Below are positions 33,631-60,264 of a DNA stretch of 64,000 nucleotides, piece after piece. The notes under the pieces were generated by a model. It made no database searches, was not told where the DNA came from, and worked only from the letters and a program-made list of their open reading frames with translations. How positions within the stretch are numbered: position 1 is the first letter of the stretch; every line of letters starts with the position of its first letter. This DNA is from an uncultured Planctomycetota bacterium (GTDB lineage Bacteria; Planctomycetota; UBA11346), in the NCBI GenBank assembly GCA_903902515.1, contig CAIUVD010000069.1:11475-75474 (forward strand), read 5' to 3'. Both the position numbers and the translations under genes were made by a program.

Positions 33631-33646
33631 TTGCGGATCTGCGACC
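33631..33646 (+). promoter_or_regulatory. Conserved motif TTGCGGATCTGCGACC (instance 1 of 7)
   Basis: One of seven copies of consensus TTGCGGATCTGTGAYC. Lies between the AraC gene and the CBM-like gene. Confidence 0.6.
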
Positions 33647-33959
33647 TGACCGGTGTGGGTGGACGCGTGACCTGGATCGAAAACTTCCTCCGGGCGCACC
33701 AACGCCGGGGCGCATGCATCGGGTCACCTTGCCCATGGCGGTGGACGCCGACGGGAAGCCGGAGGACACCGTGGAACTGACCGCAGCCGATCGCTTCAAC
33801 GGCAAGGGTGGTCCGATCCGCAGAAGCGAGGCGGGATCCGCGGGAGGCAGCACCGTTCTTCGCGTGGGTGATGTGGCCAAGCCCTGGCAGGGATTTTGAG
33901 GTGCCCCGTTGCTGAAATGTGATGTGCCCAGGGCGGTAGAGTGGTGTCATCATGATGGT

Positions 33960-34466
33960 ATGCGCACTCTCCTCGCCTCGATCGCTTCCCTCACCCTGAT
34001 CGCTGCCCTGCCGGCCGCCGATGGTCTCCTACCGGACGCCACCACGGTGTTGGCCACGGGTACCGTCGCGAACTGCCAGGTCAGCCTGGTGGATGTCGAA
34101 GGGCGCCAGGGCAAAGTCCTCCGATTCCAGGTCGCGGAGGTGCCGAAGGAAGGCTGGATGTCCCATGCCTACGCCTATGGCATCGAGATCCCGGTAAAGA
34201 CCGGTGAAACCGTGGAGATCACCGGTTGGTCACGCCTGGTCGATGGCCCCGAGGGCGCGATCAAGGTGGATTTGAGCGGGTCTGAACGGCCCTATGACGT
34301 GGCGGTGACGGGGTGGATCACCCCGGTGGCGGAATGGCGCCGGTTCACCATCAAGGGCGTGGCCAGCAAGGACCTGTCTCAAGTTCGCTTCGGTCTCTGC
34401 GTAGGATATCGGAAGCAGACGGTGGAGGTCGCCGAGATCGCCATTCGCAAGGTGGGATCGCCTTGA
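33960..34466 (+). CDS. Secreted carbohydrate-binding-module-like protein (CBM4/9/22-like beta-sandwich)
   Basis: Signal peptide MRTLLASIASLTLIAALPAADG. ~150-aa beta-rich domain with the ...EGWMSHAYAYGIEIPVKTGETVEITGW... pattern typical of CBM_4_9. Confidence 0.5.
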   Translation: MRTLLASIASLTLIAALPAADGLLPDATTVLATGTVANCQVSLVDVEGRQGKVLRFQVAEVPKEGWMSHAYAYGIEIPVKTGETVEITGWSRLVDGPEGAIKVDLSGSERPYDVAVTGWITPVAEWRRFTIKGVASKDLSQVRFGLCVGYRKQTVEVAEIAIRKVGSP

Positions 34467-34523
34467 TCCCCTTGCGCGAGTCACGCTTGATGAGGTAGAC
34501 TCGAACTCTGGTGGGGAGGCGCC

Positions 34524-35261
34524 ATGGACCGCTATGAAAACCCTAAGATCCGCGGGTTCACCCTGATCGAGCTGCTGGTGGTCATCTCGATCATCGCGGT
34601 CCTGGCGGGCATGCTGCTTCCCGCAGTGGGCATGGTCAGGAATTCGGCCAATGCCTCCCGCTGCCTCAACAGTCAGAAGCAGGTGGCCTTGGGTTGCCTG
34701 GGCTATGCCAATGACCAGGAGGGAGTGCTTCCAGCCCTGCGGATGCCCACCACACCGATCGTGACCTTCTGGACCCAGTTGGTGCTTCGGGACTACCTGG
34801 ATGCCGGGATGATCGATGCCAACCGGACCAACTTCGACCGTACCAGCCTCCAGGGCTGTTCCGAATGGAATCGTGCCACGTCTTCCTCCGCGAACCGGGC
34901 CTGGCAGGGTGCCTACGGCTTCAACTCTTCGCCCCTGAGTGAAAACGGGGTCATCAACCTGGCCAACAACGACTACGGACGCAGTGATTTGGCCAATGCC
35001 AAAGCCATCGCCCTGAGCCAAATCACCAAGCAGTCTTCCCGAGTGATGCTGGGCGATGTGCTCAACACCGATGGCACCTCAACCTACCGGATCAATGCCG
35101 TCATCGGTACGGTGACCGAGGCCAGCAACGCGGTGAACGCCACCAGCACCCTGCTCAAGAGTTGGCACACGGAGGGGCGCCAGGTCACCATCACCATGTT
35201 CGATGGTCATGGCGAGAAACGGTCGATCACCCTCGCCGCCGCCGCCATCGTCAATCCCTAG
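34524..35261 (+). CDS. Prepilin-type N-terminal cleavage/methylation domain protein (DUF1559 family)
   Basis: GFTLIELLVVISIIAVLAGMLLPAV class-III signal. C-terminal WHTEGRQVTITMFDGHGEKRS (H-X9-DG-like) typical of DUF1559. Confidence 0.85.
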   Translation: MDRYENPKIRGFTLIELLVVISIIAVLAGMLLPAVGMVRNSANASRCLNSQKQVALGCLGYANDQEGVLPALRMPTTPIVTFWTQLVLRDYLDAGMIDANRTNFDRTSLQGCSEWNRATSSSANRAWQGAYGFNSSPLSENGVINLANNDYGRSDLANAKAIALSQITKQSSRVMLGDVLNTDGTSTYRINAVIGTVTEASNAVNATSTLLKSWHTEGRQVTITMFDGHGEKRSITLAAAAIVNP

Positions 35262-35362
35262 CGCAGGTCCCATGGGTGCCGCGTTCCGGCAGGGTTTGGT
35301 TCCCCACCGGATCGGTTCCTGCACGTAGCGGCAGTTGCCGACATGTCCGCCGGGGCGGGGAC

Positions 35363-35378
35363 TTGCGGATCTGTGATC
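35363..35378 (+). promoter_or_regulatory. Conserved motif TTGCGGATCTGTGATC (instance 2)
   Basis: 92 nt upstream of the second DUF1559 gene. Confidence 0.6.
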
Positions 35379-35469
35379 TGCTGGGGGAACGGGCCAGGTC
35401 CTAGGGTTACCGGTAGCGCCCTCCAGAGGGGCCACGGTTCTCCCATCCCTGTCCTGGAATTGTTCCGCC

Positions 35470-36204
35470 ATGTACTCCGTCAATCCGTCCAAGGGTTTCA
35501 CCCTCATCGAACTGCTGGTGGTCATCTCAATCATCGCCGTGCTGGCGGGATTGCTGATCCCAGCGGTGAATCTGGTGCGGGAGAGCGCCAACGGCATCCG
35601 GTGCATGAGCAGTCAACGCCAGGTGGCGATGGCGATTGTTGGGTATGCCAATGACCAGGACGGGGAACTGCCCGCCTTGTACCTGACCGATACGCCCATC
35701 GCGACCTTTTGGTCCCATCTGATCCTGCAGGATTACCTGGAAGCCGGAAAATCGAATGCCGTGCACACCAATTTTGCCCGCACGCCCATGCAGGGCTGTC
35801 CATCGTGGATGCGGGCGACCCGTCAGGTCCCGTTTCAGGAACGGGCGGGGGCCTATGGCATGAATTCCAACCCCATGTCAGACAACGGTGTCATCAATCC
35901 GATCCACAGCGATTACAAGGTGGGCGGACCCAATGCCCGTCGGATCACCCTCAGTCAGATCACGAAAGCCTCTTCCCGCCTGCTCATCGCCGATGCGATC
36001 AATGCGGATAATACCCCGACCCATCGGCTGAATCCGGTCACGGGGACGGTCACGGAGGCCAGCAATGCGGCCTTGGGGCAGAACTTCGAAACCAAACTCA
36101 GGAGCTGGCATGCGACGGGGCGTCTCATCGCCGTGACCATGTTTGACGGTCACAGCGAGAAACGGAGCATGACGGCGGCTGCGGCCGCCATGACCAACCC
36201 CTGA
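35470..36204 (+). CDS. Prepilin-type N-terminal cleavage/methylation domain protein (DUF1559 family), paralog
   Basis: KGFTLIELLVVISIIAVLAGLLIPAV. C-terminal SWHATGRLIAVTMFDGHSEKRS. Confidence 0.85.
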   Translation: MYSVNPSKGFTLIELLVVISIIAVLAGLLIPAVNLVRESANGIRCMSSQRQVAMAIVGYANDQDGELPALYLTDTPIATFWSHLILQDYLEAGKSNAVHTNFARTPMQGCPSWMRATRQVPFQERAGAYGMNSNPMSDNGVINPIHSDYKVGGPNARRITLSQITKASSRLLIADAINADNTPTHRLNPVTGTVTEASNAALGQNFETKLRSWHATGRLIAVTMFDGHSEKRSMTAAAAAMTNP

Positions 36205-36210
36205 GCGAGG

Positions 36211-37140
36211 ATGTCGATGATCCATACCGGCCAACTTGAGGGCTTCCCCGCCGTGACCCTCAGCAACGGCGAGGTGGAGGCGGTGTTTGTGCCGATGCTC
36301 GGTGGGCGCCTCGCGTCCTTGAAGGCGGTGGGGGGGCGCTCCTGGTGCTTTTCCCCCGGTGACCGGCTCCAGCTTTGGGCCAACCGACCGGGGGATCCAT
36401 TCACCACCGGGACCTTCGTCGGCTTGGATGAATGCCTGCCCACCATCACCGCCTGTCGGGTGGATGGACGTGACCTCCCGGACCATGGTAGTTGCTGGAA
36501 CCATCCCTGGGAGCTTCTGCCGGGCGATGGGGTCGGTCTCGGCCTGGACCTGCCCGATTTGCCCCTGCGCCTGGAGCGCCGGGCGACCCTCCGCGGGACC
36601 ACCCTTCGTCTGGACTATGCGCTGACGAACCGCGGTGATCGGCCCGAGCGCTGGGGCTGGGCCTTCCATGGTCTTTTGGCTTTGGCCCCCGGGGATCGTA
36701 TCGAACTGCCCGGGGTGGAGAGCGTCCGGGTGGCGGCCCAGCGCCTGGCCGAACCCCTGTCCCTCCCGACCTGGGCCTGGCCCTCCCCCCGGCCCGACCT
36801 GCACCTGGATACCCTGGACCTGGGCCCCGGCCCGACCTTCCTCAAGGCCTTCGCCGGCCCCCTGGACGATGGCCATGCCGCCGTGTGGGCCCGGGATGGC
36901 CAGGGACTCGCATTGCGGTGGCCCGCCCAGACCAACCCCTGGTGTGGGCTGTGGCTGTCCCGGGGCGGCTACCTGAATCAGCACACCCTCGCCCTGGAAC
37001 CGACCAACCTGCCCTGCGATAGCCTTGAGATGGCCGGTGACCGGGCGGCGGTGCTGGACCCGGGCGCCACGGCCACCTGGTGGGTGGAGATGTGCCTTAC
37101 CCCTCCACGGAACGACCGCCACCGGTCAGTCGGCGGATGA
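36211..37140 (+). CDS. Aldose-1-epimerase (galactose mutarotase)-like / DUF4432-like protein
   Basis: Beta-sandwich-type sequence with conserved His/Asp/Glu positions. Weak family call. Confidence 0.4.
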   Translation: MSMIHTGQLEGFPAVTLSNGEVEAVFVPMLGGRLASLKAVGGRSWCFSPGDRLQLWANRPGDPFTTGTFVGLDECLPTITACRVDGRDLPDHGSCWNHPWELLPGDGVGLGLDLPDLPLRLERRATLRGTTLRLDYALTNRGDRPERWGWAFHGLLALAPGDRIELPGVESVRVAAQRLAEPLSLPTWAWPSPRPDLHLDTLDLGPGPTFLKAFAGPLDDGHAAVWARDGQGLALRWPAQTNPWCGLWLSRGGYLNQHTLALEPTNLPCDSLEMAGDRAAVLDPGATATWWVEMCLTPPRNDRHRSVGG

Positions 37141-38185
37141 GGGCGGTCTCCTGCGCATCGTAGGGCTGGCCATCCGGATGGAGGATCTCGTGGAACCACG
37201 GCGAGGGAGGGGTGGTCATGGGCGTGATCCAGGTCGTCCATGGATACTCGGTTTGGCAGCGGCCGGCCACCAAACCCCAGTTCCAGGCCGCCACCCGATG
37301 GCGGTGCAGCACCGGTAGGCTGCTGGCAAAGGTCGAACCGGCCCCCCGGGCCATGTACTCGCTGCACCACACGGGACGGCCATGAACCGCCAGGTTGGCG
37401 ATGCAGGCCTCCAGCACCTCGGGGGCCCCGTAGTTATGGAAGCTGAGCACATCACTGGCCTCCACCTGGAGGCGCTGGAGGGGGGACAGGTGGTCGGCGG
37501 CGAAGTCCCCCTGCCAAATGCCAGAGGTCAGGGGTTGGCTGGGGGCGACCTCGCGGGCCCAGGCGAAGACCTGCGCCAGCCGCTCCGTCACCAGGTCGGT
37601 CTTCTCGGCGACGGGGAGGTCGAGGTGCTCGTAGGGTTTGCCGGTGCTGTGGTTTTCCGGCTCGTTCCACAGGTCCCAACCGTGGATGCGGCGGTCCTGG
37701 GCAAAACGGGTCAGAACGCCTTGCACATAGGGCTGCAGGCGGGCGAAGCGCGCCGCGTTCCTTACCACTGCGGCGCCGGGGCTCTGCACCCAGCGGGAAT
37801 TGTGCACCCGGGGGATGGGTTCGGGTTGCGGGCCCGGTTGGGGATCCGGATACCAGCAGGAATCGAAGAAGACGAGGAGGGCACCAATGCCGAGCTCCTC
37901 AGCGATGGTCAGGACCCGGTCGATGCGCTCCAGGAATCCGGCGGGGTCTTGCTCCCAGCACAGGTCGTGGAGGAAGATGCGCATGCTGGTCATGCCCAGG
38001 TCGGCGGCCCAGCCCAGCTCGCGGGCGATGGTGGCCGGATCGAAGGTGGCAGCCTGCCAGAATTCCAGCTGGTTGCTGGCGGTGGAGGGCGTGAAGTTGG
38101 CGCCCACCAGCCAAGGCAGGGACGAGCACCAGGCCTGGGCGCGTTCCGGGGACCAGCGGGTGGCGGAGAGGTGGGGGTGGTTCAT
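37097..38185 (-). CDS. Glycoside hydrolase family 5-like (beta-mannanase/cellulase superfamily)
   Basis: (beta/alpha)8 pattern. WDLWNEPEN (catalytic acid/base NEP). VWCSEYM region as candidate nucleophile Glu. Confidence 0.65.
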   Translation of the reverse strand: MNHPHLSATRWSPERAQAWCSSLPWLVGANFTPSTASNQLEFWQAATFDPATIARELGWAADLGMTSMRIFLHDLCWEQDPAGFLERIDRVLTIAEELGIGALLVFFDSCWYPDPQPGPQPEPIPRVHNSRWVQSPGAAVVRNAARFARLQPYVQGVLTRFAQDRRIHGWDLWNEPENHSTGKPYEHLDLPVAEKTDLVTERLAQVFAWAREVAPSQPLTSGIWQGDFAADHLSPLQRLQVEASDVLSFHNYGAPEVLEACIANLAVHGRPVWCSEYMARGAGSTFASSLPVLHRHRVAAWNWGLVAGRCQTEYPWTTWITPMTTPPSPWFHEILHPDGQPYDAQETALIRRLTGGGRSVEG

Positions 38186-38376
38186 GGCCGTGAACGTGCC
38201 TACCGGGGGGCTGGAATGCCATCGGCACGATCCACCGTTTCCTTCGCCAAATCCACCGCCAAATCCACTCAGAGGTAGGAGAGGACGGTTGTGCTTCCTT
38301 TATCGCAGGCCCTCAGGGCGCAGCATGACTGAGGCTCGCAGTCCATTACGAAGCATCCATCGGGATCCTCCATGCC

Positions 38377-39210
38377 ATGCCTGTCACCGCTGCTGACCTT
38401 CGCGAAATCCATGACATCGGGAGCAAGACCCGGGAATGGCTGGTGGCCGGGGAGTCCATCCCCGCCCTGGCCCGGGCACGGATCGTCATGTGTGGAGTGT
38501 CCCGCTGCCGGTCTGGGTTTCATTTCGTGCGTCATGCCTGGGAGCACAGCCAGTTGCTGCTGGCGCTGGGGCCCGGCGGCGCCTGCCTGATCGACGATGA
38601 TTGGCGAGCCCTGGCCCCGGGAGAGGGCTACCTGACTCCCGCTGGGGTCACCCACGCCTATCGCTGCCTGCCGGATCGGACCTGGTGGCACGTCTGGGCC
38701 ATCCTCCAGGAGCCGGAGGACTGTGATCGTCGGATCACCGCCGAGCGCCCCGTCATCATTCCAGGGGATGGGCGGCCCTTGCACGATGCCGTCCTCAACC
38801 TCCACCGGGAGACCATGGGTGCGGGGGATCCCACCCTGGTGCGGCAGTGGTCGGATCTCGTGGTGGCCTTGCTAAGCCGGCACCTGGCCCCGGTTCAGAC
38901 CGACCAGCGCCTGTGGCGCCTGTGGGAGGAGATCGATGCCGATCTGAGCCAACCCTGGACTCTCGGTGACTTGGCGAGACGGGCAGATCTTGGCCAGGAG
39001 CAGTTGCGTCGGCTGTGCCGGCGTCAACTCGATGCCAGCCCGATGCAGCACCTGACGCGTCTACGAATGCGTCGGGCCGCCGCCCTCCTCGCCAGCGGCG
39101 ACCGCTCGATTGGACAGGTGGCGGAGGCCGTCGGCTATGCCAATGCCTTCGCCTTCTCCACCGCCTTCCGGCGGCACCACGGCGTACCGCCATCCTACCG
39201 GCGAACCTGA
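38377..39210 (+). CDS. AraC-family transcriptional regulator
   Basis: Cupin-like N-terminal domain. C-terminal HTH_AraC (WTLGDLARRADLGQEQLRRLCRRQL...VGYANAFAFSTAFRRHHGVPPS). Confidence 0.85.
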   Translation: MPVTAADLREIHDIGSKTREWLVAGESIPALARARIVMCGVSRCRSGFHFVRHAWEHSQLLLALGPGGACLIDDDWRALAPGEGYLTPAGVTHAYRCLPDRTWWHVWAILQEPEDCDRRITAERPVIIPGDGRPLHDAVLNLHRETMGAGDPTLVRQWSDLVVALLSRHLAPVQTDQRLWRLWEEIDADLSQPWTLGDLARRADLGQEQLRRLCRRQLDASPMQHLTRLRMRRAAALLASGDRSIGQVAEAVGYANAFAFSTAFRRHHGVPPSYRRT

Positions 39211-39231
39211 GTCAGGGACGGGATCCGAGGA

Positions 39232-39247
39232 TTGCGGATCTGTGATC
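39232..39247 (+). promoter_or_regulatory. Conserved motif TTGCGGATCTGTGATC (instance 3)
   Basis: 129 nt upstream of heparinase paralog 1. Confidence 0.6.
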
Positions 39248-39375
39248 CTGCCCTCACCTTGGAGTTGGTGACCCTGGGAGATGTTCCCATTCCGTGTTCT
39301 CCCGGCCTGGTCCTGTCCCCCGGCCGCCATGCCAGCCCCATACCCTTCCCGCGTCATCCCCGACGGAGGCATCCC

Positions 39376-41352
39376 ATGGCCCTGAATTCCCTACGGTCCC
39401 CCCACTTTGCGACGGGGTTCCTCGGTCTCGCCGTGCTCAGCATCGTGGGCTGCGGGACCTCGGGCCCATCGAACACGCGCCCCGCCGCTACGCCACCGTC
39501 GTCCTCGACCGCCGCCGCCCCGGCCACAGCCCCGGTCACCACGGCCGTCGGTAAGGTCGACCCGGCTCAAGCTGCCGACCCCTTGGCCAGTGCCGTGCGG
39601 GGCCACCCCCGCCTGTTCGCGGATCGCCCCACCTTCGAACGCATCGCCCGGAGCACCACGCCCGTGGTCCAGGAATCCCTCCGCATCCTGGCGGCCGAAG
39701 CGGCGTTCCACCGCGACCGGCCCCTGCTTGAGCACCGGGTCGACGGCTTCCGCCTGCTGGCGGTCAGCCGCACCGCCGTGCAGCGCATCGGCAGCCTAGC
39801 GGGTGCCTACCGGCTGTTGGGGGATCAGGCCGCTGGTGAAGCCGCCCGTCGCAACCTGATGGCGATTGTCCGTTTCCAGGACTGGAACCCCCGTCACTAC
39901 CTGGATGTCGGGGAAATGACCCTGGCCGCCGCCCTGGGCTACGACTGGTGCCACGACCTGCTGACGCCCGAGGAACGGCAAGAGGTCCGTGCAGCCATCG
40001 CCACCAAGGGCATTCAACCGTCCTTTGTCGAGCCCCGTCCGGGGAATCTCCATTGGGTCGAGGGACACACCAATTGGACCCAGGTGTGCCATGCCGGTCT
40101 GGTGGCGGGGGCCCTGGTGATCCACGAAGAGGAACCGGACCTGGCCCGGCGGACCATCCAGCGAGCCCTCACGTACCTCCCGAAGGCAGCCGATGGCATC
40201 TATGACCCCACGGGGAACTACCCGGAAGGGACCATGTACTGGGGGTACGGAACCATGTACCACCTCATCGCCGTCGAGGCCCTCCGTTCGGTCCTGGGTG
40301 CGGACGGTGGGCTGGGGCGTCATCCCGGCCTTCTGGCCAGTGGCGAGTTTTTTGCCCATGGTCATGGCCCCACGGGCCAGCCGTTTTGTTACGGCGACAG
40401 TTCCGCCGCCACACCGGGATGGCTCGTCAATGCCGCCTCTCTGGCCTGGTTTGCGCGCGAGAACAGCCGCGCGGCCTTGCTGCCACCGCCGCCCAAGACC
40501 CCCCACAAACCCTCGGACAATGCCGCCCATCGCTTCGCGGCCTTCCTGCCGCTGTGGCTCCAGGACCCGCCCTCTCAGGGTGAGGCCCTGCCCCTGGAGT
40601 GGGTCGGCGGCGGTATTCGCCGGGTGTGGTTCTGTCGGAATGCCTGGAACGATCCCAAGGCCTCCTTTGTTGGGGTCACGGCGGGTTCGCCCGGCGATCA
40701 CCATGGGCACATGGACACGGGCAGCTTCATCTTCGAACAGGGTGGCGTGCGCTGGGCCCACGACCTGGGCATGCATCCCTACGAACCGCTCGAGAAAGCT
40801 GGCCTGAAACTGTGGAGCCTGTCTCAGGACAGCCAACGTTGGACGGTTTTCCGGCTGGGTGCCGAAGCCCACAACATCCTCCGTCTGCCGGGCATCACCC
40901 AAAACGTCACCGGTCGCGCGACCCTGGTCCACCGTTCGGAGGATCCCGCCAATCCCGGGTGTGATCTGGACCTGACCTCGCTCTACACCCCCCAGGCTAC
41001 CCGCGTGTTCCGTCAGGTCCGGTTCCCGGGACGCACCGCCCTGGAGGTGACCGACGAGATCGAGGGGCTGGCCATCACCGGCACCCTGCGCTGGCAGATG
41101 ATGACCCGAGCCAAGGTGGACGTGGCGGCGGACGGCCGGGGGGCGATCCTGACCCAGGACGGTCGGTCCCTGCCCTTGTCGGTCACCGAGCCCGCCCAGG
41201 CCCGGGTGACCATCACCCCGGCCGGTCCCACCCTGCCGTTCGAACGCCAGAACCCGGAGTTCACCCGGGTGGTGGTCGAGGTACCCGCTGAACAGGGCTC
41301 CTCGACGCGGATTCGGGTCCACCTGGGTTCCCTCACCACCGCCAAGGAGTGA
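39376..41352 (+). CDS. Heparinase II/III-family polysaccharide lyase (lipoprotein), paralog 1
   Basis: Lipoprotein signal (LAVLSIVGCGTSG). Hepar_II_III_N pattern DWNPRHYLDVGEMTLAAALGYDWCHDLLTPEE. Alpha/alpha toroid followed by a beta-sandwich C-terminus. Confidence 0.85.
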   Translation: MALNSLRSPHFATGFLGLAVLSIVGCGTSGPSNTRPAATPPSSSTAAAPATAPVTTAVGKVDPAQAADPLASAVRGHPRLFADRPTFERIARSTTPVVQESLRILAAEAAFHRDRPLLEHRVDGFRLLAVSRTAVQRIGSLAGAYRLLGDQAAGEAARRNLMAIVRFQDWNPRHYLDVGEMTLAAALGYDWCHDLLTPEERQEVRAAIATKGIQPSFVEPRPGNLHWVEGHTNWTQVCHAGLVAGALVIHEEEPDLARRTIQRALTYLPKAADGIYDPTGNYPEGTMYWGYGTMYHLIAVEALRSVLGADGGLGRHPGLLASGEFFAHGHGPTGQPFCYGDSSAATPGWLVNAASLAWFARENSRAALLPPPPKTPHKPSDNAAHRFAAFLPLWLQDPPSQGEALPLEWVGGGIRRVWFCRNAWNDPKASFVGVTAGSPGDHHGHMDTGSFIFEQGGVRWAHDLGMHPYEPLEKAGLKLWSLSQDSQRWTVFRLGAEAHNILRLPGITQNVTGRATLVHRSEDPANPGCDLDLTSLYTPQATRVFRQVRFPGRTALEVTDEIEGLAITGTLRWQMMTRAKVDVAADGRGAILTQDGRSLPLSVTEPAQARVTITPAGPTLPFERQNPEFTRVVVEVPAEQGSSTRIRVHLGSLTTAKE

Positions 41353-41371
41353 CGAGGCCGGAGGAGGCTGG

Positions 41372-41387
41372 TTGCGTTTTTGTGACG
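41372..41387 (+). promoter_or_regulatory. Degenerate motif copy TTGCGTTTTTGTGACG (instance 4)
   Basis: 35 nt upstream of paralog 2. Matches the consensus at 11/16 positions. Confidence 0.4.
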
Positions 41388-41421
41388 CTGATCCCTTCGC
41401 GCTTCCTGCAGGCTTGGTGCT

Positions 41422-43866
41422 ATGCCCCACTCCCTGCCGCCCCGTCGTCCCCACCGCGATGACCGCCATCCCGGGGGACGGGGAACCCGTACCGGACTCC
41501 GACGGAGGGCGCCTGCACGGTCCTCCGCCGGAGTCCTGGTCCTGGTCGTCCTGGGGTTGGTGGCCGCCGGGGGCTTGGCCTGGTACCACGCCGGGATGCC
41601 GACCACGATTCCCGAGACCGTGGCCAGGGGGCCCACCGCTCCTGCCGTTCCATCGCCCCCAACTCCGGCTCCAGCCCCACCCTCCGCACCCCGGGCTCCG
41701 GAGCACTCCTCACGTAACGAGCCATCCCTCACCGGGGATGTCGTGGCGCGTCAGGGCGCGGCCCCGGCCAAACCACCGCACGACCCGGAACCACCGTTTC
41801 CGACGCCCGCCTTCGCTCGGGGTCTTCCGCCTCCGGGCACGGTGATGCTCGCGGTCTCGCCGCCTCCCGAATCGCCGGAGGTGCCCATGCCCCCCAGTGA
41901 CGCGACGTCATCGACACCGGCTCCGCCAGCGAGCGAGCGCGCGGAACCGGCAGCATCGGAATCGGGCCCGGTTGCCGCTTCGCCACCGTCGTCCAAGACC
42001 CCGGCAAGCCGGTCGAAAACCCCGGCCTCGGGTGCCGCGTCCGCCGCCAAAGGCCGACGTCTTCAACCGGCCACGCTCTTAGCTAGTGCCGTGCGTGGCC
42101 ACCCCCGCCTTTTCGCGGATCGCGCCACTTTTGACCGCATCGCCCGCAGCACCACGCCCATGGTCCAGGAATCCCTCCGCATCCTGGCGGCCGAGGCGGC
42201 GTATCACCGTGCCCGGCCCCTGCTTGAGTATCGGGTTGATGGCTTCCGCCTCCTGGCGGTCAGCCGCTCCGCCGTGCAACGCATCAGCGGCCTGGCAGGC
42301 GCCTACCGGATGCTGGGGGATCGGGACGCCGGTGATGCCGCCTGTCGCAACCTGATGGCGATCGTTCGCTTCCAGGACTGGAACCCCCGTCACTACCTGG
42401 ATGTCGGGGAAATGACCCTGGCCGCCGCCCTGGGCTATGACTGGTGCTACGACTTACTGACGCCCGAGGAACGGCAGGAGGTTCGCGCGGCCATCGCCAC
42501 CAAGGGCATCGAGCCATCCTTCGTCGAACCGCAACTCTTCTGGGTGGCTGGACACACCAACTGGACCCAGGTGTGCCATGCCGGTCTGGTGGCGGGGGCC
42601 CTGGCGATCTACGAAGAGGAACCGGATCTGGCGCGGCGGACCATCCTGCGGGCGCTCACGTATTTGCCGAAGGCTGCCGATACCATCTATGATCCGTCCG
42701 GAAATTATCCGGAAGGGACCATGTACTGGGGCTACGGGACCATGTACCACCTCATCGCCATCGAGGCCCTCCGTTCGGTCCTGGGGTCGGATGGTGGGCT
42801 CGGGAGTCATCCCGGCCTCCTGGCCAGTGGCGAGTTCTTTTCCCATGGTCATGGACCCACGGGCCAGCCGTTCTGTTATGGCGACAGTTCCCCTGCTACG
42901 CCGGGATGGTTGGTCAATGCCGCCTCGCTGGCCTGGTTTGCACGAGAGAACGGCCGCGCGGCCTTGCTGCCGCCGTCCCCCATGACGCCCCATCGATCTT
43001 CGGAGAATGCCGCCCATCGCTTCGCGGCCTTCCTGCCGCTGTGGCTCCAGGATTCGCCTTCCCAGGGTGCGCCTTTGCCCCTGGAGTGGGTCGGCGGCGG
43101 TATTCGCCGCGTGTGGATGGCCCGCAGCGCCTGGAATGATCCCGAGGCCTCCTTCGTCGGGGTCACGGCGGGTTCCCCCGGCGATCACCATGGCCACATG
43201 GACACGGGCAGTTTCATTTTCGAACAGGGTGGCGTGCGCTGGGCCCACGACCTGGGGATGCATCCCTACGAGCCGTTGGAGAAAGCCGGCCTGAAATTGT
43301 GGGACTTGTCCCAGGACAGCCAACGGTGGACGGTCTTCCGTCTGGGTGCTGAGGCCCACAACATCCTTCGTCTTCCGGGCATCACCCAAAATGTCACCGG
43401 CCGCGCGACCCTGGTCCAACGCTCCGAGCATCCTGCCAGACCCGGATGCGATCTGGACCTGACCTCGCTCTACGCCCCCCAGGCTACGCGCGTGGTCCGC
43501 CAGGTCCGGTTCCCGGGGCGCAGCGCCCTGGAGGTGACGGACGAAATCGAAGGCCTGGCCATCACCGGCACCCTGCGCTGGCAGATGATGACCCAGGCCC
43601 AGGTGGAGGTCGCGCCCGACGGTCGGGGGGCGATCCTGACCCAGGACGGCCGGTCTTTGCCCTTGTCGGTTACGGAGCCCGCCCGGGCCCGGGTCACCGT
43701 CACCCCCGCCGGTCCCACCCTGCCGTTCGAACGGGAGAACCCGGAGTTCACGCGGGTGGTGATCGAGGTTCCCGCCGACCAGGGGTCCTCAACCCGGATC
43801 CGGGTCCTCCTGGGTTCCTCCCCGGCCCCTGGCAGACCAGGGAATAGCGAGCGACGCCCACGCTGA
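41422..43866 (+). CDS. Heparinase II/III-family lyase, paralog 2, with N-terminal TM anchor and ~200-aa Pro/Ala/Ser-rich linker
   Basis: TM segment AGVLVLVVLGLVAAGGLAWY, then a low-complexity PTPAPAPPSAP...linker, then a heparinase core ~80% identical to paralog 1. Confidence 0.8.
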   Translation: MPHSLPPRRPHRDDRHPGGRGTRTGLRRRAPARSSAGVLVLVVLGLVAAGGLAWYHAGMPTTIPETVARGPTAPAVPSPPTPAPAPPSAPRAPEHSSRNEPSLTGDVVARQGAAPAKPPHDPEPPFPTPAFARGLPPPGTVMLAVSPPPESPEVPMPPSDATSSTPAPPASERAEPAASESGPVAASPPSSKTPASRSKTPASGAASAAKGRRLQPATLLASAVRGHPRLFADRATFDRIARSTTPMVQESLRILAAEAAYHRARPLLEYRVDGFRLLAVSRSAVQRISGLAGAYRMLGDRDAGDAACRNLMAIVRFQDWNPRHYLDVGEMTLAAALGYDWCYDLLTPEERQEVRAAIATKGIEPSFVEPQLFWVAGHTNWTQVCHAGLVAGALAIYEEEPDLARRTILRALTYLPKAADTIYDPSGNYPEGTMYWGYGTMYHLIAIEALRSVLGSDGGLGSHPGLLASGEFFSHGHGPTGQPFCYGDSSPATPGWLVNAASLAWFARENGRAALLPPSPMTPHRSSENAAHRFAAFLPLWLQDSPSQGAPLPLEWVGGGIRRVWMARSAWNDPEASFVGVTAGSPGDHHGHMDTGSFIFEQGGVRWAHDLGMHPYEPLEKAGLKLWDLSQDSQRWTVFRLGAEAHNILRLPGITQNVTGRATLVQRSEHPARPGCDLDLTSLYAPQATRVVRQVRFPGRSALEVTDEIEGLAITGTLRWQMMTQAQVEVAPDGRGAILTQDGRSLPLSVTEPARARVTVTPAGPTLPFERENPEFTRVVIEVPADQGSSTRIRVLLGSSPAPGRPGNSERRPR

Positions 43867-43998
43867 GACGCCGCTTGATGAGGACGGTGATGGTGCGCCT
43901 GGGTCGGCCCTTCTCAGGCTTCAGGAAGGGTCAGCTGGGGATGGCATCTCGGCGCATCGGCAGCCTGGCCCCGAGCAAATGCGGAGGAGCCTCGAACC

Positions 43999-44014
43999 TT
44001 GCGGATATGTGACG
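43999..44014 (+). promoter_or_regulatory. Conserved motif TTGCGGATATGTGACG (instance 5)
   Basis: 78 nt upstream of the outer-membrane beta-barrel gene. Confidence 0.55.
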
Positions 44015-44091
44015 CTGCGACGGTGACGTCCCCGGTCACGATGGCGATATCAGCCGCCTCATCCCGAGGTGGCCTCTGCTAGGAAACTTCC

Positions 44092-44802
44092 ATGGGTCGT
44101 ATCTTCACCGTCCTTTGCTCCTCCTGCCTTGCCACTCTCGCCATCGGCGCTGAGGGCATGGCCGCGAACAACCTGCGCCTCAGCGTGGGCGTCGCTCGGG
44201 GCTTCGACATCCCGCAGGAAGAGTTGGACAAGACCACCAACAGTTTAATGGAGGAGTTCGATATCGCGGTCGGGGCCTATGAAACCAACGCCGCCACGAC
44301 GCTGGAGGTCCCGATGCTGTTCGAGCTTCCAGCCCAGGGCCGTTTCCGATTCCTGGCTGGACCGGCGGCATTTTACTCGCGCAATACCAACGACATTCAT
44401 CTGTTCGCCACGGACCTCCTGGGTCCCGATTCCCTCACCGCCAACGGCAGCGATACGATTACCGTCGTGGGTCTCAAGCTGTATGGCGGCGGCCGCTACA
44501 TGGTGCAGGACCAGTTCGCCCTCGAGTTCCTCCCCTACCTGGGGTATGGTCGTACGCGGGTCCAGTCGGAGGGGTCTATTCGCGGCGAGCTGGGTGGGAT
44601 CTCCATCGATGAAAACATGCGGGAGACTTACTCCGGGAATGCCCTCCTGTACGGGGCCACCATGGGCGCGTACTACCTGTCGCCTTCGGGATTCCAGATT
44701 GGCTCACGTCTTGGCTATGCGGGCGGAACGTCCACCGTTGATGACGTCAAATACACGCAAAATGGCGCCTCCCTGTCCCTCGATGTCGGCTGGGGCTGGT
44801 AA
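44092..44802 (+). CDS. Outer-membrane beta-barrel protein (porin-like), C-terminal ...GWGW
   Basis: Signal peptide. Alternating amphipathic strands. Aromatic C-terminal residue typical of an OMP beta-signal. Confidence 0.6.
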   Translation: MGRIFTVLCSSCLATLAIGAEGMAANNLRLSVGVARGFDIPQEELDKTTNSLMEEFDIAVGAYETNAATTLEVPMLFELPAQGRFRFLAGPAAFYSRNTNDIHLFATDLLGPDSLTANGSDTITVVGLKLYGGGRYMVQDQFALEFLPYLGYGRTRVQSEGSIRGELGGISIDENMRETYSGNALLYGATMGAYYLSPSGFQIGSRLGYAGGTSTVDDVKYTQNGASLSLDVGWGW

Positions 44803-44860
44803 GATCAGGACCCTCCTGTACGGGGCGGGCCTCTGATCCGCGCCCGATGAAGACCATCTC

Positions 44861-44901
44861 CTGCCCCAACCATCCGCTCTCGTGGCGGATGGTTGGGGCA
44901 G
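44861..44901 (+). terminator. 17-bp perfect stem-loop CTGCCCCAACCATCCGC-tctcgtg-GCGGATGGTTGGGGCAG
   Basis: Seen directly, ~60 nt after the OMP stop codon. No U-tract, as is common in high-GC genomes. Confidence 0.5.
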
Positions 44902-44976
44902 CAGGGGTCCGCGACCACGTGGCTCAACGGCGGGTCCGGTGCATGGCGCTTGCGTCCGATTTGGCGCGTTCTCCGA

Positions 44977-44992
44977 TTGCGGATCTGTGATC
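44977..44992 (+). promoter_or_regulatory. Conserved motif TTGCGGATCTGTGATC (instance 6)
   Basis: 34 nt upstream of ATG 45026 and 127 nt upstream of ATG 45119 of heparinase paralog 3. Confidence 0.6.
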
Positions 44993-45118
44993 TTGGGCCA
45001 GATCTCCCCGAGCGAAAAGGACACGATGTTACGCCCTCCTGCCCCTGTCCGTAGTTCGTCACCGGGACGTCGCCGTGGTCCCGGATCGCCATCACGCCGA
45101 CGTATTCAGAGGCCCACC

Positions 45119-47077
45119 ATGACCGAGCGATTCCTCCGAGCCTGGCCCTTGGCGTTGGTGGCCGTTGGCCTTGGCACCGTCGGGCTTGTGATCTGGCGCT
45201 CACCGGAAGCGTCGTCCCCGGGCGCGTCTTCGGCTCCGGCCGTCGTCTCGGCTCCGGCCGCAGTTTCAGCCCCAGAGCCCACGTCCCGCGCCGTGGCCAC
45301 CTCCCAGGTGCCCCTCGACACCAACGATCCCCTCGCTCGCGCCGTCCGTGGTCATCCACGGCTCTTTGCGGGGGCCGGGGAGTTTACCCGCCTGGCGGCC
45401 AGCACCGATCCGGCGGTGCAAGAATCCCTGCGGGCTATCGCCGCCGAGGCAGCCTTTCTGCGTCAGCGTCCCCTGCTGGAGCGCAAGGTGGATGGCTTCC
45501 GCCTGCTGGCCGTCAGCCGTGCGGCGGTCCTGCGCGTTGGCACCCTGGCAGCGGCCTACCGCATGCTGGGTGACGGGGCCGCGGGCCAGGCGGCGCGGGA
45601 GAACCTTTTAGCCATCGCCCGTTTCAGCGATTGGAATCCGCAGCATTACTTGGACGTCGGCGAGATGACCCTTGCCGCCGCCCTGGGTTATGACTGGTGT
45701 CATGACCTGCTGACGGCGGAGGAGCGGGCCGAGGTTCGTGCCGCCATTGCCACCAAGGGCATCATGCCCTCGTTCGTGGAACCGGCCCCGTTCTGGGTTG
45801 CCGGTGTGACGAACTGGACCCAGGTGTGCCACGCCGGCCTGGTGGCCGGCGCCTTGGCCATCCACGAGGACGAGCCGGAGCTGGCCCGCCGTACGGTTTT
45901 GCGGGCCCTCCAGTACTTGCCGAAGGCCCAAGACGCCATCTATGACCCCACGGGGAATTATCCCGAGGGCCCCATGTACTGGGGATATGGCACCATCTAC
46001 AGCATCATCGCCAACGAGGCCCTGCGCTCCGTGGTGGGGGATGATGGCGGCCTAGGGCGGCATGCCGGCCTGTTGGCCAGCGGTCAATTCTTCGCCCACG
46101 GCCACGGCGTCACCGGACAGCCCTTCTGCTACGGGGACTGCTCCGCCTCGGCGCCAGCCTGGATGTACAATGCCGCGGGCCTGTCGTGGTTGGCCCGGGA
46201 GAATCGACAGGCGGCCCTCCTGCCGACCCCGCCCCGGCCGATGCTCAAGCCATCGGATGATGTCAATTTGCGCTTCCTGCCCTTCCTGCCCCTGTGGCTT
46301 TTGGATGGACCAGCGCCCGGGGAACCTCTCCCGCTCACCTATGTCGGTGGCGGGCTGCGCCAGGTGTGGATCAGTCGTCAGGCGTGGGGGAATCCTCACG
46401 CCGCCTACGTGGGGGTCACGGCGGGTTCTCCGGGGGATCACCATGGCCACATGGACACGGGCAGTTTCGTTTTCGAGCGGGACGGCGTCCGCTGGGCCCA
46501 TGACCTGGGCATGCACCCCTACGAGCCCCTCGAGAAAGGCGGGGTGAAGTTGTGGGACCTGTCCCAGGACAGCCCGCGGTGGACGGTCTTCCGCCTGGGA
46601 GCCGATGCCCACAACATCCTCCGCCTGCCCGGCGTCACCCAGCGGGTTCAGGGCCGTGCCACGTTGGTCCCGCGCCTGGAAGACCCCGCCTCCCCCGGCT
46701 GCGACCTCGATCTCACCTCCATCTATGCCCCCCAGGCGACCCGCGTACAGCGTCAGGTGCGCTTCCCCGAGCGCACCGCCCTGGAGGTCACGGACCGCGT
46801 TGAGGGCCTAGCGGTGACCGGCACCCTCCGCTGGCAGTTGCTGACCCGTGCTACGGTAACCGTGGATCCCGGTGGTCGGGTGGTGCATCTGCAGGAAGCC
46901 GGCAAGTCCCTCGACCTGACGGTGCTGGAACCGGCGACCGTGCGCCTGACCACGGCCCCGGCGGATCCCTACCTGCCCAGCGAACGCCCCAACCCCGGGT
47001 TCACCCGGGTCGCGGTGGAGGTGGATGGGGTCCAGGGAACGTCGGTGCAGGTGCGAGTCCGCCTCGCCCGGCCGTAA
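45119..47077 (+). CDS. Heparinase II/III-family lyase, paralog 3
   Basis: TM/signal anchor MTERFLRAWPLALVAVGLGTVGLVIW. Same domain order as paralogs 1 and 2. An alternative start at 45026 would add a basic N-terminal tail. Confidence 0.8.
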   Translation: MTERFLRAWPLALVAVGLGTVGLVIWRSPEASSPGASSAPAVVSAPAAVSAPEPTSRAVATSQVPLDTNDPLARAVRGHPRLFAGAGEFTRLAASTDPAVQESLRAIAAEAAFLRQRPLLERKVDGFRLLAVSRAAVLRVGTLAAAYRMLGDGAAGQAARENLLAIARFSDWNPQHYLDVGEMTLAAALGYDWCHDLLTAEERAEVRAAIATKGIMPSFVEPAPFWVAGVTNWTQVCHAGLVAGALAIHEDEPELARRTVLRALQYLPKAQDAIYDPTGNYPEGPMYWGYGTIYSIIANEALRSVVGDDGGLGRHAGLLASGQFFAHGHGVTGQPFCYGDCSASAPAWMYNAAGLSWLARENRQAALLPTPPRPMLKPSDDVNLRFLPFLPLWLLDGPAPGEPLPLTYVGGGLRQVWISRQAWGNPHAAYVGVTAGSPGDHHGHMDTGSFVFERDGVRWAHDLGMHPYEPLEKGGVKLWDLSQDSPRWTVFRLGADAHNILRLPGVTQRVQGRATLVPRLEDPASPGCDLDLTSIYAPQATRVQRQVRFPERTALEVTDRVEGLAVTGTLRWQLLTRATVTVDPGGRVVHLQEAGKSLDLTVLEPATVRLTTAPADPYLPSERPNPGFTRVAVEVDGVQGTSVQVRVRLARP

Positions 47078-58079: not shown

Positions 58080-60211
58080 GGGGTGTTTCCAGGGGAGGCG
58101 GAGGGTGCGGGGTGGATCCACAGGCCGAAGCAGCCCCCCGCGACCCACAGGTCGCGGGTCTGCGGATGGACCCGTAGGCAGAAGGCTTCGCGCCCGCCAT
58201 CGCGTTGGCCGTCCGTCAGCGGCTTGGTCACCGACAAGGAGGCCCAGGTATCCCCGCCATCGGTGGAACGCTGCACCGAGACACTGCTGGTGTACCGGTT
58301 GCGGCAGCGTCCGACGTAGACCACCTGCGGATCCAAGGGGTCGATGGCGACGGAGTTGACCCGGGGCACCGTGGGCTCCTGATCTGGAACGAGGTTGGTG
58401 ACCCGTGTCCAGCCGCCCGCGGACCAGCGCCGGAGTTCGCGCTGATCGACCACCACCCACACCTGATCGCCCGCCGGGGTCACCGCCAGATCCTCGATGG
58501 TGCCGGTGATCGGTGCCACCAGACGCCACGAGGCCCCGTGATCCCCGCTCATCACGACGCCCTCGGGGCCGCGACCGTAGAGGTTGCCGACAGCGTCATG
58601 GGCGAAGACCCCGGAACATCCGGCCATCCGTTGCCAGGTCATGCCGCGATCGGTGGTGCGCAGGCTTCCAGCGAAGGCGACCGAGGGCTCCCGGGGGTCG
58701 CCGGTTGCTACTTTGACGCCGTCGTAGGCCTGCCCCGTGCTTGACCAGGTGACCCCGCCGTCGCGGCTGACGCTCAAGATGGGGGAGGAACCCCAGGATT
58801 CCTGTACACCGACGACCATCACCTGGGCATCGATGGCATATCCGCCATAGGTAAAGCCGCCCCAACGGTGGCCCGAAACCGGGGCATAGGTCCAGGTGCG
58901 GCCCCCGTCCCGGGTGACGGCACCGTTGTAATCCTGGCTGCCGATCATCAGCAGATGGGGATCGCGCACGTTGAAGGCCAGTTTTCCGCCAACCAGGAGA
59001 CAGTTGAAGCCGCCGCTGCTGGGGACGAAGGTCCGGCCCCCATCCCGGCTGATGGTCGGGAAATCCCCGCCGCTGGACCAGCACACCTGGGCATCGATGG
59101 GGCTCCAGGTGGGGACGTGCTGTCGCGCATTGGTGGGCAGGAAACTGCTGCGCCCGTCCACGGATGCCGGAAGGACGTTCCGACCTCCGTCATGGCTGAC
59201 GAAGCGGGGCCACTCGTAGTCGTCCGCTTGGTAGTCCCCCTGACGCCAGAAGGCCAGGCGACGGTCATCGACCGGACTCACCCGCACATCCCGCAAGGAG
59301 CCTTTCCCGGGCAGGGAGGACGCCGTGAACAGCATGGTCCACGTGGCTCCGGCATCGTCACTGCGCAGGGCCGCTTCGGGCGTGGTGGCCCAGACCGAGG
59401 TCGGTAGGCGGGGATGCACATCCACCGCCGTGCAGGGGCCGGCGAGGATCCGGGTGAAGGTGGTGCCACCATCCCGGCTCAGCCACAGTCCGGTCGGATG
59501 GGTGGCATAGAGGAGTCCGCCGGCCGGGGCGACGGCGATTTCGCCGCCGGCGAGGTGGGCGGTCCCCGGTAGCACCTGCCAAGTCCGACCACCGTCGTCG
59601 GAACGCCACAGAGCCGGATCCGCCGGAATGGCCTCGGTCCGCCCGGGCCCCGGGGCATCGGTGGCGATGCGGGACCAATAGACCCGTCCGGTCCGGGCCT
59701 GGGCCGCATCCCACGTGGTCGGATCGAACGCCAGTTGGCGACGGAAATCCATGGCTCCGCAGATAGTGGCTGACAGCACCTGACGCCAGGACGCAGCCCC
59801 ATCTTCGCTGAGCCACAGGCCATGCCGGGGCGAGGCCATGGAATTGGCGCCCACCGCCAAGCACCGCTGCGGGTTTCCGGGATCGATGGCCAGGCCCGAG
59901 GTTCCGCGCGGATCGAAACCGACATTGCAGGGTTCCCAGGTCGACCCAGCATCCCGCGACCGCCATAGTCCTCCCACATCGGTGCCATAGAGCAGGAACC
60001 GACCGTTCGTGCTCACGGCGATGGCCCGGTGCCATTGGCCGCCTTCGCCCCCCGGGATCCCGGCCGCCCGCTGCTCGGCGCTCTGCAAAGGTACGGCTCG
60101 CCAGCCCGGTTCGGCGGCGGCGACGTGGACGGTCAGTCCCGTCAGCAGGACCAGGAGCACACCGTGGTGGAGGAGGGACAAGACCCGGGGAAGGTGGCGC
60201 ATGGTCGCCAT
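58076..60211 (-). CDS. BNR/Asp-box repeat glycoside hydrolase (GH74 xyloglucanase-like double beta-propeller)
   Basis: At least 12 Asp-box repeats (SRDAGSTW, SDDGGRTW, SRDGGTTF, SDDAGATW, TRDGGRTW, SRDGGVTW, STDGGDTW...) spread over ~700 aa. Signal peptide. Confidence 0.75.
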   Translation of the reverse strand: MATMRHLPRVLSLLHHGVLLVLLTGLTVHVAAAEPGWRAVPLQSAEQRAAGIPGGEGGQWHRAIAVSTNGRFLLYGTDVGGLWRSRDAGSTWEPCNVGFDPRGTSGLAIDPGNPQRCLAVGANSMASPRHGLWLSEDGAASWRQVLSATICGAMDFRRQLAFDPTTWDAAQARTGRVYWSRIATDAPGPGRTEAIPADPALWRSDDGGRTWQVLPGTAHLAGGEIAVAPAGGLLYATHPTGLWLSRDGGTTFTRILAGPCTAVDVHPRLPTSVWATTPEAALRSDDAGATWTMLFTASSLPGKGSLRDVRVSPVDDRRLAFWRQGDYQADDYEWPRFVSHDGGRNVLPASVDGRSSFLPTNARQHVPTWSPIDAQVCWSSGGDFPTISRDGGRTFVPSSGGFNCLLVGGKLAFNVRDPHLLMIGSQDYNGAVTRDGGRTWTYAPVSGHRWGGFTYGGYAIDAQVMVVGVQESWGSSPILSVSRDGGVTWSSTGQAYDGVKVATGDPREPSVAFAGSLRTTDRGMTWQRMAGCSGVFAHDAVGNLYGRGPEGVVMSGDHGASWRLVAPITGTIEDLAVTPAGDQVWVVVDQRELRRWSAGGWTRVTNLVPDQEPTVPRVNSVAIDPLDPQVVYVGRCRNRYTSSVSVQRSTDGGDTWASLSVTKPLTDGQRDGGREAFCLRVHPQTRDLWVAGGCFGLWIHPAPSASPGNTP

Positions 60212-60248
60212 CTTGGGGCACCACCATCAGCAAAATCCAGGGGCCTGA

Positions 60249-60264
60249 TTGCGGATCTGTGACA
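60249..60264 (+). promoter_or_regulatory. Conserved motif TTGCGGATCTGTGACA (instance 7)
   Basis: In the 87-nt gap between the divergent GH operon (minus) and the beta-helix gene (plus). 35 nt upstream of ATG 60299. Confidence 0.6.

Follow-up and report, generated by a model that had tools for sequence, protein, structure and literature searches.

A 16-nt motif with the consensus TTGC(G/t)GAwnTGTGAyc (i.e., TTGCkGAwnTGTGAyc) occurs in nine copies in the 64-kb window analysed here, which is the whole 64,000-nt stretch taken from contig CAIUVD010000069.1 of an uncultured Planctomycetota bacterium. Comparison of these copies with related contigs indicates that the motif is a genuine cis-regulatory element that is conserved in, and specific to, one clade and has a precise promoter geometry, and the best reading of the data is that it would define the regulon of a heparinase-type polysaccharide-utilisation cluster. 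On balance, the 16-mer is probably a transcription-level control element of this cluster, namely a class II activator site consisting of two boxes bound by a single protein, located at promoters that would give mostly leaderless mRNAs.

Motif copies in the window

With TTGCGGATCTGTGAYC as the query and up to three mismatches allowed, seven matches were obtained (31136, 33631, 35363, 39232, 43999, 44977, and 60249), all of which are on the plus strand. Dinucleotide-preserving shuffles searched in the same manner gave a mean of 0.95 matches and a maximum of 4, and none of the 100 shuffles reached seven. A position weight matrix (PWM) built from the copies added the copy at 41372 (TTGCGTTTTTGTGACG) at 22 bits and a new copy at 33909 (TTGCTGAAATGTGATG) at 18.5 bits, and the best remaining match in the window, at 14.8 bits, lies within dnaG. 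Thus, the seven plus-strand, intergenic copies described in the initial annotation are all real, but the count has to be raised to nine by adding the copies at 31136 and 33909. The accompanying statement that such an occurrence is not due to chance holds as well, since, in addition to the result of the shuffles, all nine copies are intergenic even though the intergenic share of the window is 9.5% in our own gene list (chance probability 6e-10).

All nine copies are oriented toward the downstream gene and are confined to the 31–60 kb part of the window (Table 1). No motif copy was found in a search of window positions 1–31000, where the genes serve housekeeping and other functions and encode NadA, indole-3-glycerol-phosphate synthase (IGPS), DapF, an ABC transporter, DnaG, a LacI regulator, and a pair consisting of an extracytoplasmic function (ECF) sigma factor and FecR. 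The copy at 60249 lies within an 87-nt region common to the beta-helix gene and a divergent GH74-like operon. At the degenerate copy, a terminator-like hairpin 3′ of heparinase 1 (41356–41373) was observed, the T-run of which forms the middle of TTGCGTTTTTGTGACG, and the terminator and the next promoter element therefore overlap at 41356–41387.

Conservation in related contigs

Five related metagenome contigs have also kept the motif, with a total of seven sites, each of them 5′ of an orthologous or syntenic gene (Table 1). The orthologous contigs carrying the motif encode heparinases with 60–71% or a prepilin-type protein with 56% amino-acid identity to the window proteins. When four homologous heparinase upstream regions were aligned, the sole invariant block was the motif. 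No motif was found at the heparinase orthologues with 55% (L215, L216) and 45% (L217, L218) identity, at three loci of distant prepilin-type relatives (L210, L212, L213), or in 1.01 Mb comprising 80 distant heparinase loci (≤42% identity, among the matches listed). Because the heparinase orthologues at 55% and 45% identity are devoid of it, the motif appears to be specific to a narrow clade. An exact-pattern scan of the GTDB genomes returned at least 119 stretches, with about 550 chance matches expected in 596 Gb; among the matches listed, nearly all are single chance matches in unrelated phyla or members of two unrelated repeat families.

In two of the related contigs, a heparinase gene (L128:8079) and a GH42 gene (L129:5244) possess a homologous promoter and N-terminal module (MSSTNRSVPPRG and MPSAIRSVPRRG, respectively), which in both cases follows the motif variant TTGCTGATwTGAGACC. 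This pair suggests that promoter-plus-signal modules may have been exchanged between genes.

Motif anatomy and spacing

The anatomy of the motif was derived from 16 sites, i.e., the nine window copies and the seven copies from the related contigs. T1, T2, G3, C4, G11, and G13 are invariant in all 16 sites, and G6, T10, and A14 are present in 15; positions 7–9 are variable, position −1 is mostly A, and positions 17–18 show a weak Y-T/G preference. The site is thus asymmetric, being composed of two boxes, TTGC (positions 1–4) and TGTGA (positions 10–14), both of which are invariant or nearly so, and its orientation relative to the gene is the same in 16 of 16 sites. No dyad symmetry was found across the 16 sites, a PWM scan of both strands at offsets from −60 to +40 revealed no second or tandem copy, and no other 8-mers shared upstream of the motif, or in the stretch from its end to the ATG, exceeded the shuffled controls. 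The flanks of the window copies are unrelated to each other, only the 16 nt being common. A Dam-type methylation switch at the two GATC sites was also considered and rejected, as 6 of the 16 copies lack GATC.

Downstream of the motif, a hexamer of the form NANNNT begins 22–23 nt past the motif end, starting at motif position 38–41 in 11 of 14 sites (background 0.109; p = 7e-9). The hexamers seen are CATCAT, TAGGGT, GACCCT, CAGGCT, CACGAT, CAGCAT, GATCAT, TAATGT, TAGGCT, TAGAAT, and GAGCAT. An ATG, the A of which is at motif position 50–52, is likewise found in 11 of 14 sites (background 0.040; p = 1e-13), giving an overall layout of motif (1–16), 22–23 nt, NANNNT, 5–6 nt, and ATG. Collapsing homologous upstream regions into groups leaves the ATG in about 7 of 10 groups and the hexamer in 8 of 12, and both spacings remain far beyond chance. 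The distance of 34–130 nt to the start codon given previously is therefore roughly right, but it masks this regularity, as the ATG lies 33–35 nt past the motif in six of the nine window copies.

The ATG at position 50–52 is the called start of the GH31, CBM-like, heparinase 2, beta-helix, L129 prepilin-type, and L219 CBM-like genes. For heparinase 3, L127, L214, L128, and the L129 GH42 gene, it is an in-frame upstream start, the gene caller having preferred a later ATG with a Shine–Dalgarno sequence. Signal peptides begin right at the position-50 ATG in the three secreted proteins checked (the CBM-like, beta-helix, and L219 proteins). Upstream of the position-50 ATGs of the GH31, CBM-like, heparinase 2, and beta-helix genes, no Shine–Dalgarno sequence was found, and the distant starts of heparinase 1 (+144) and the outer-membrane beta-barrel protein (OMP; +93) are preceded by one. 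The six bases at the expected −35 (motif positions 16–22) are non-consensus, and a simple sigma-70 consensus scan detected no promoter at any motif copy, with terminator-like sites occurring at chance level.

The position-50 ATG of heparinase 1 (39281) opens a 34-codon out-of-frame open reading frame (ORF; 39281–39385) that ends across the heparinase 1 start at 39376. The corresponding ATG of heparinase 3, L127, and L214 lies in the reading frame of the gene, and the encoded N-terminus, MxRPP, is conserved. A 2-nt frame change may thus have occurred in heparinase 1, or this gene may make use of a leaderless upstream ORF to which its main start is coupled.

Table 1 Motif copies and motif-linked genes in the window and motif copies in the related contigs
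Feature	Position	Strand	Sequence	Context
Motif copy	31136..31151	+	TTGCGGAATTGTGACC	5′ of GH31; ATG 31187, A = motif position 52; new relative to the initial annotation
Motif copy	33631..33646	+	TTGCGGATCTGCGACC	Divergent region between AraC1 (start 33544, − strand, ~87 nt from the copy) and a 61-codon ORF (33714–33899)
Motif copy	33909..33924	+	TTGCTGAAATGTGATG	−10-like CATCAT 33948–33953, then ATG 33960 of the CBM-like protein, at which its signal peptide begins
Motif copy, perfect	35363..35378	+		5′ of the second prepilin-type (N_methyl) gene; −10-like TAGGGT 35402–35407; start codon 35470, predicted leader ~56 nt
Motif copy, perfect	39232..39247	+		22 nt past the AraC2 stop codon, 5′ of heparinase 1; −10-like GACCCT 39270–39275; lipoprotein start 39376, preceded by GGAGG
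Motif copy, degenerate	41372..41387	+	TTGCGTTTTTGTGACG	20 nt past the heparinase 1 stop codon; −10-like CAGGCT 41409–41414; ATG 41422 is the start of heparinase 2
Motif copy	43999..44014	+	TTGCGGATATGTGACG	5′ of the outer-membrane beta-barrel gene (ATG 44092); −10-like CACGAT 44037–44042
Motif copy, perfect	44977..44992	+		5′ of heparinase 3; ATG 45026 = motif position 50, in frame with heparinase 3, which the gene caller starts at 45119
Motif copy	60249..60264	+	TTGCGGATCTGTGACA	5′ of the beta-helix protein gene; −10-like CAGCAT 60287–60292; ATG 60299, immediately followed by the signal peptide
Motif copy, L127	L127:2128		TTGCGGTTCTGTGACC	1 nt past an AraC stop codon, before a heparinase gene
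Motif copy, L214	L214:263		TTGCGGTTCTGTGATC	Before a heparinase gene
Motif copy, L128	L128:8030		TTGCTGATTTGAGACC	Before a heparinase gene
Motif copy, L129	L129:4177		TTGCGGAAATGTGAAC	Before a prepilin-type gene
Motif copy, L129b	L129:5195		TTGCTGATATGAGACC	Before a GH42 gene
Motif copy, L219	L219:144		TTGCGGAAACGTGATC	Before a CBM-like gene
Motif copy, L219b	L219:1519		TTGCGGAATTGTGCGG	Before the second prepilin-type gene
Main motif-linked gene block	31187..47077	+		Members as listed in the section on the genes of the cluster
Beta-helix protein gene	60299..61945	+		Outlying member of the motif set

Proposed mechanism and candidate regulators

Since the spacing from the motif to NANNNT and to the ATG is fixed, the promoters are proposed to be leaderless or near-leaderless, each copy being directly 5′ of a weak promoter in which NANNNT would serve as the −10 element. 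Transcription would start about 6 nt past the hexamer, mostly at the A of the ATG, and in four or five cases (33631, 35363, 43999, 39232, and L219:1519) it would produce leaders of 33–95 nt, which carry their own Shine–Dalgarno sequence. The motif would accordingly occupy about −51 to −35, with its centre near −42.5, a position that follows only from the inferred −10 hexamer and the leaderless ATG; no −35 hexamer is recognisable after the motif. From the asymmetric two-box site, the poor −35 region, and the single orientation, we infer activation rather than repression, and a class II activator as the type of protein. One protein would bind the site through TTGC, five bases, and TGTGA, with the box centres about 9 bp apart, and the bound protein would recruit RNA polymerase and switch on the whole cluster. 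The earlier proposal of a co-regulated polysaccharide-degradation cluster is in this respect supported, the cis-regulatory signal being backed by its conservation in related genomes and by its fixed position.

An AraC/XylS-type activator, either AraC1 or one encoded elsewhere, is still plausible as the binding protein, given the asymmetric two-box build and the position of the site. AraC genes adjoin the copies at 33631, 39232, and L127:2128, and AraC1 may be considered the best local candidate because it is divergent from a motif-bearing promoter and because this arrangement recurs in the L219 lineage, in which the order GH31, AraC1, motif, CBM-like gene, and prepilin-type genes is found again. 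The regulator could equally well be encoded outside the window. L214 carries an orthologue of AraC3, and the cis element stays constant while the neighbouring AraC genes change, which would suggest a single regulator shared across the clade. AraC3 itself, which contains a cupin domain, has no motif nearby in the window, and no DNA-binding domain was found in the response regulator at 49806–50459.

Several observations weigh against the activator model or limit its reach. The initial annotation suggested one of the three AraC regulators of the window as the binding protein. A site common to all three is not supported: the three proteins are only 23–29% identical and differ in both recognition helices, no motif lies near AraC3, and the AraC gene before the L127 motif is not an orthologue of AraC2; no local regulator is tied to the motif by conservation. 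Moreover, dimeric members of the family, such as XylS, AraC, and RhaS, normally bind a tandem pair of sites, unlike the motif, which is present in one copy per promoter. A single copy would fit only a monomeric binding mode such as that of MarA/SoxS/Rob, unless a second, very weak site is present. Some of the sites are also related by homology (heparinase 1, heparinase 3, L127, and L214 on the one hand, and L128 and L129b on the other), corresponding to about 10–12 independent groups. The NANNNT hexamer is mostly found at sites that also have the ATG, only two of the four ATG-less sites having it, and it could in principle be an A/T patch related to translation. Finally, the motif-positive loci found all represent the same cluster type, from which a local and a genome-wide regulon are indistinguishable.

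Alternative explanations

The position and orientation of the motif, which are fixed relative to the start codon, would also be expected of a core-promoter element read directly by a holoenzyme with an alternative sigma factor (ECF or other) for glycan-utilisation genes. The motif begins with TTGC, resembling a −35 hexamer, it is limited to one functional gene class and absent from housekeeping promoters, and an ECF sigma gene is present in the window (13241–14026), with another inside the orthologous L127 cluster. However, sigma-70-family factors need −35 and −10 elements 16–19 nt apart (16–17 nt for ECF), and no conserved column exists 16–19 nt past either box; the sole enriched downstream element is 22–23 nt past the motif, at a distance of 32 nt from TTGCGG and of about 24 nt from TGTGA. 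ECF genes are usually autoregulated, yet no PWM match above 10 bits is found near the ECF/FecR genes (13241–15404). The idea of a promoter element for the local ECF sigma, raised in the initial annotation, thus fails for want of a conserved partner 16–17 nt away and of a motif 5′ of the ECF/FecR pair (13.2–15.4 kb). The sigma-fusion gene of the L127 cluster is represented in the window only by a C-terminal remnant, whereas the motif copies are intact. The sigma-54 geometry, GG-N10-GC at −24/−12 (TGGCAC-N5-TTGC), fails on both strands: when TTGC is taken as the −12 element, the upstream TGGCAC matches only 1–3 of 6 bases, and the reverse complement of the perfect copies has GATCAC rather than GGxxAC and points away from the genes. 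Direct reading by an alternative sigma factor is therefore unlikely. A little less probable is a lineage-specific core-promoter element that would act via an alternative sigma factor or a sigma-like adaptor with a geometry unlike any described promoter class, a Planctomycetota 'glycan promoter class' that would be used genome-wide, with the local AraC proteins adding substrate specificity. In that case, a single compact element at −51 to −35 would lie 22–23 nt from a minimal −10 and give leaderless mRNAs; overall, a non-canonical promoter class of this kind is considered unlikely.

The motif could alternatively be the operator of a repressor located just 5′ of the promoters, e.g., a cluster-wide repressor released by a polysaccharide breakdown product. 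The evidence from conservation and position is the one used for the activator model, the sequence alone is silent on the sign of regulation, and a LacI-family gene and other regulators are present in the window. Operators, however, are usually palindromic and overlap the region from −35 to +1, while the motif lacks symmetry and stops at the expected beginning of the −35. In addition, a non-consensus −35 region is typical of activator-dependent promoters, and the strict co-orientation is expected of an activator that contacts the polymerase but is not required of a steric repressor. We therefore regard repression as improbable. Less probable again, indeed very unlikely, is a role at the RNA level, as an element that would lie in a 5′ leader or an intercistronic region, be bound by a protein or the ribosome, and direct translation to start 34 nt downstream without a Shine–Dalgarno sequence. 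The fixed distance of the motif to the ATG is consistent with such a role, and read-through transcription is possible for the copies at 33909, 39232, 41372, L127, and L219b, which lie 1–22 nt past a co-directional stop codon. Nevertheless, four or five copies are 78–144 nt from the real start, which has its own Shine–Dalgarno sequence, suggesting that the spacing is fixed relative to something other than the start codon of the gene, and NANNNT is found without the ATG at two of these distant-start copies. There is also no Rfam match and no conserved structure-forming flank, and two boxes conserved in primary sequence and spaced by one helical turn are a typical sign of DNA recognition. A structured RNA was separately rejected, the whole window giving 0 matches to Rfam covariance models at the gathering score.

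The least credible explanation, which can practically be dismissed, is that the copies are remnants of a dispersed repeat, such as a repetitive extragenic palindromic (REP) element or a miniature inverted-repeat transposable element (MITE), with no regulatory role. The identical 16-mer does occur in true repeat families of other phyla (L026, L057, and L084 of the Acidobacteriota, and the metagenome-assembled genome (MAG) JAJFTD01). However, the copies share only 16 nt with unrelated flanks and no inverted partner, they have a single orientation toward the gene and a fixed distance to the ATG, and the motif was kept at orthologous positions while its flanks diverged. As for the repeat families themselves, the Acidobacteriota stretches (L026:5258–5396; L057:4431–4566 and 1823–1964; L084:2557–2723) are 130–165-nt imperfect palindromes between genes, with GATTGCG/GATCTGT-type heptamers and with inverted copies of the identical 16-mer at the two ends, and look like a REP-like family unrelated to the window motif. 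In MAG JAJFTD01 ('bacterium bin.10'; L018, L040, L050, L074, L089, L107, and L125), a dispersed repeat of about 60 nt was observed on seven contigs. Each unit has a hairpin, GGTCCnGGaTCTGyGAyCCnGGACC, and then CACCTC-TTGCGGATCTGTGATCCGCT, with the 16-mer in a second small palindrome (GCGGATC/GATCCGC).

Genes of the cluster

The main motif-linked block comprises genes for GH31, the 61-codon ORF, the CBM-like protein, two prepilin-type proteins, an aldose-epimerase-like protein, three heparinase II/III paralogues, and the OMP, with two AraC genes interspersed (AraC1, 32714–33544, − strand; AraC2, 38377–39210, + strand). The genes behind the motif had been described as encoding exported proteins. 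This agrees with the signal or anchor sequences present in the three heparinase paralogues and in the OMP, CBM-like, and beta-helix proteins, but not with GH31 behind the 31136 copy, which has no signal peptide. The operon divergent from the beta-helix gene (GH74-like, GH27, CE7, and GH36) has no motif copy in the correct orientation. The window comes from a freshwater metagenome; genes identical to its own are found on BUCK21 lake scaffolds and in MAG GCA_903882295.1, and strain variants (L001–L007) are 99.85–100% identical to the window. For NadA (72–75% identity) and the prepilin-type proteins, the nearest named homologues belong to Planctomycetota, and the organism is accordingly a probable planctomycete.

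Heparinase 1 (39567–41331) and heparinase 2 (42063–43818) represent a recent tandem duplication with 87.6% nucleotide and 89% amino-acid identity, the latter over the catalytic part; it covers neither the promoters nor the regions encoding the N-terminal anchor and linker. As the duplication begins about 190 nt inside the genes, the motif copies of heparinase 1 and heparinase 2 would not have been simply copied with the genes. Heparinase 2 possesses an N-terminal extension of about 210 residues with a membrane helix and a proline-rich linker.

Further downstream, a DUF4419 gene is split into two ORFs (47714–48586 and 48623–49447, corresponding to profile positions 1–135 and 162–302), where L127 has one 499-residue gene; the split may reflect either a frameshifted pseudogene or an assembly error. 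The region 47186–47597 is a remnant of the C-terminal part (58–66% amino-acid identity) of a 542-residue L127 protein (L127:4796–6424), which fuses an ECF sigma domain, a membrane segment, and a C-terminal domain and is intact in the L127 cluster. The glyoxalase gene adjoining this remnant is cut to 53 codons in the window. In the motif-free part of the window, the start codons of nadA (− strand) and the IGPS gene (+ strand, GTG) are 59 nt apart (17351–17409), with TACGGT 9 nt before the GTG. This spacing suggests that very short or absent leaders may be general in the organism.

Significance

The motif would delimit a regulon consisting of heparinase II/III-like enzymes, prepilin-type proteins, GH31, the OMP, and the beta-helix protein. 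From the motif, transcription starts can be predicted with a precision of one or two nucleotides, and many of the mRNAs are predicted to be leaderless. The motif also indicates that gene callers set several start codons 90–470 nt too far downstream (heparinase 3, L127, L128, the L129 GH42 gene, and L214). A full-text literature search yielded no studies of the promoters or transcription starts of Planctomycetota or of how polysaccharide-utilisation clusters are regulated in this phylum, and none on leaderless mRNAs in Planctomycetes or on this motif, and the transcription signals of Planctomycetota thus appear to be essentially undescribed. Should its use prove genome-wide, the motif would account for the coordination of glycan degradation in these bacteria.

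Comparison with known systems

The monomer sites of AraC/XylS proteins, e.g., TGCA-N6-GGNTA for XylS, TAGC-N7-TCCATA for AraC, and GCAC-N7-TAAA for SoxS, are built from a 4–5-base box A containing GC, 5–7 bases, and a 5–6-base box B (PMC4514859), and the MtlR site, AGTGC-N5-AGTAT, has the same build (PMC4514859; PMC5481539). XylS reads its boxes with two helix-turn-helix motifs and then contacts RNA polymerase (PMC5481539). The window motif resembles such sites (the proximal XylS site at Pm, AraC I2, and the MarA/SoxS/Rob boxes) in being asymmetric, 15–17 bp long, and composed of two short boxes with GC in box A, as well as in its fixed orientation, its predicted abutting or overlapping of a weak −35, and the presence of AraC genes within the regulated sugar cluster. 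However, the boxes TTGC and TGTGA match no described member of the AraC/XylS family.

A likeness to the class II sites of CRP/FNR (TGTGA-N6-TCACA at −41.5) is seen in the TGTGA(TC) of the motif and its predicted centre near −42.5, and the initial annotation had noted a CRP-like TGTGA half-site without its partner. Unlike the 22-bp palindrome of CRP/FNR, an inverted repeat of the form TGTGA-N6-TCACA or TTGAT-N4-ATCAA, the motif is a 16-bp asymmetric element, in which the TTGC box lies upstream in a direct rather than inverted arrangement. The CRP/FNR assignment was rejected because no second half-site is present, TCACA at motif positions 21–25 matching only 0–3 of 5 bases in the 16 sites.

Short activator boxes about 30 bp 5′ of a −10-like YANNNT are known from the AraC-family regulators HrpX of Xanthomonas (PIP-box) and HrpB of Ralstonia (hrpII-box). 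These boxes are direct repeats (TTCGB-N15-TTCGB) that control type III secretion genes, the regulons were delimited by comparative genomics, and the regulated mRNAs are not typically leaderless. The window motif is similarly a regulon-defining box at a fixed distance from a −10-like hexamer, but it is not a repeat, it precedes genes of a glycan cluster, and the mRNAs are predicted to be leaderless. In the latter respect it resembles the leaderless promoters of high-G+C bacteria such as mycobacteria, in which a TANNNT-type −10 lies about 6 nt before the ATG, with no Shine–Dalgarno sequence and no conserved −35. The motif-bearing promoters share the −10-like hexamer shortly before the ATG and the lack of both a Shine–Dalgarno sequence and a −35, and they differ in carrying an extra 16-bp element, placed at −51 to −35 by the proposed geometry, that is confined to one functional gene set.

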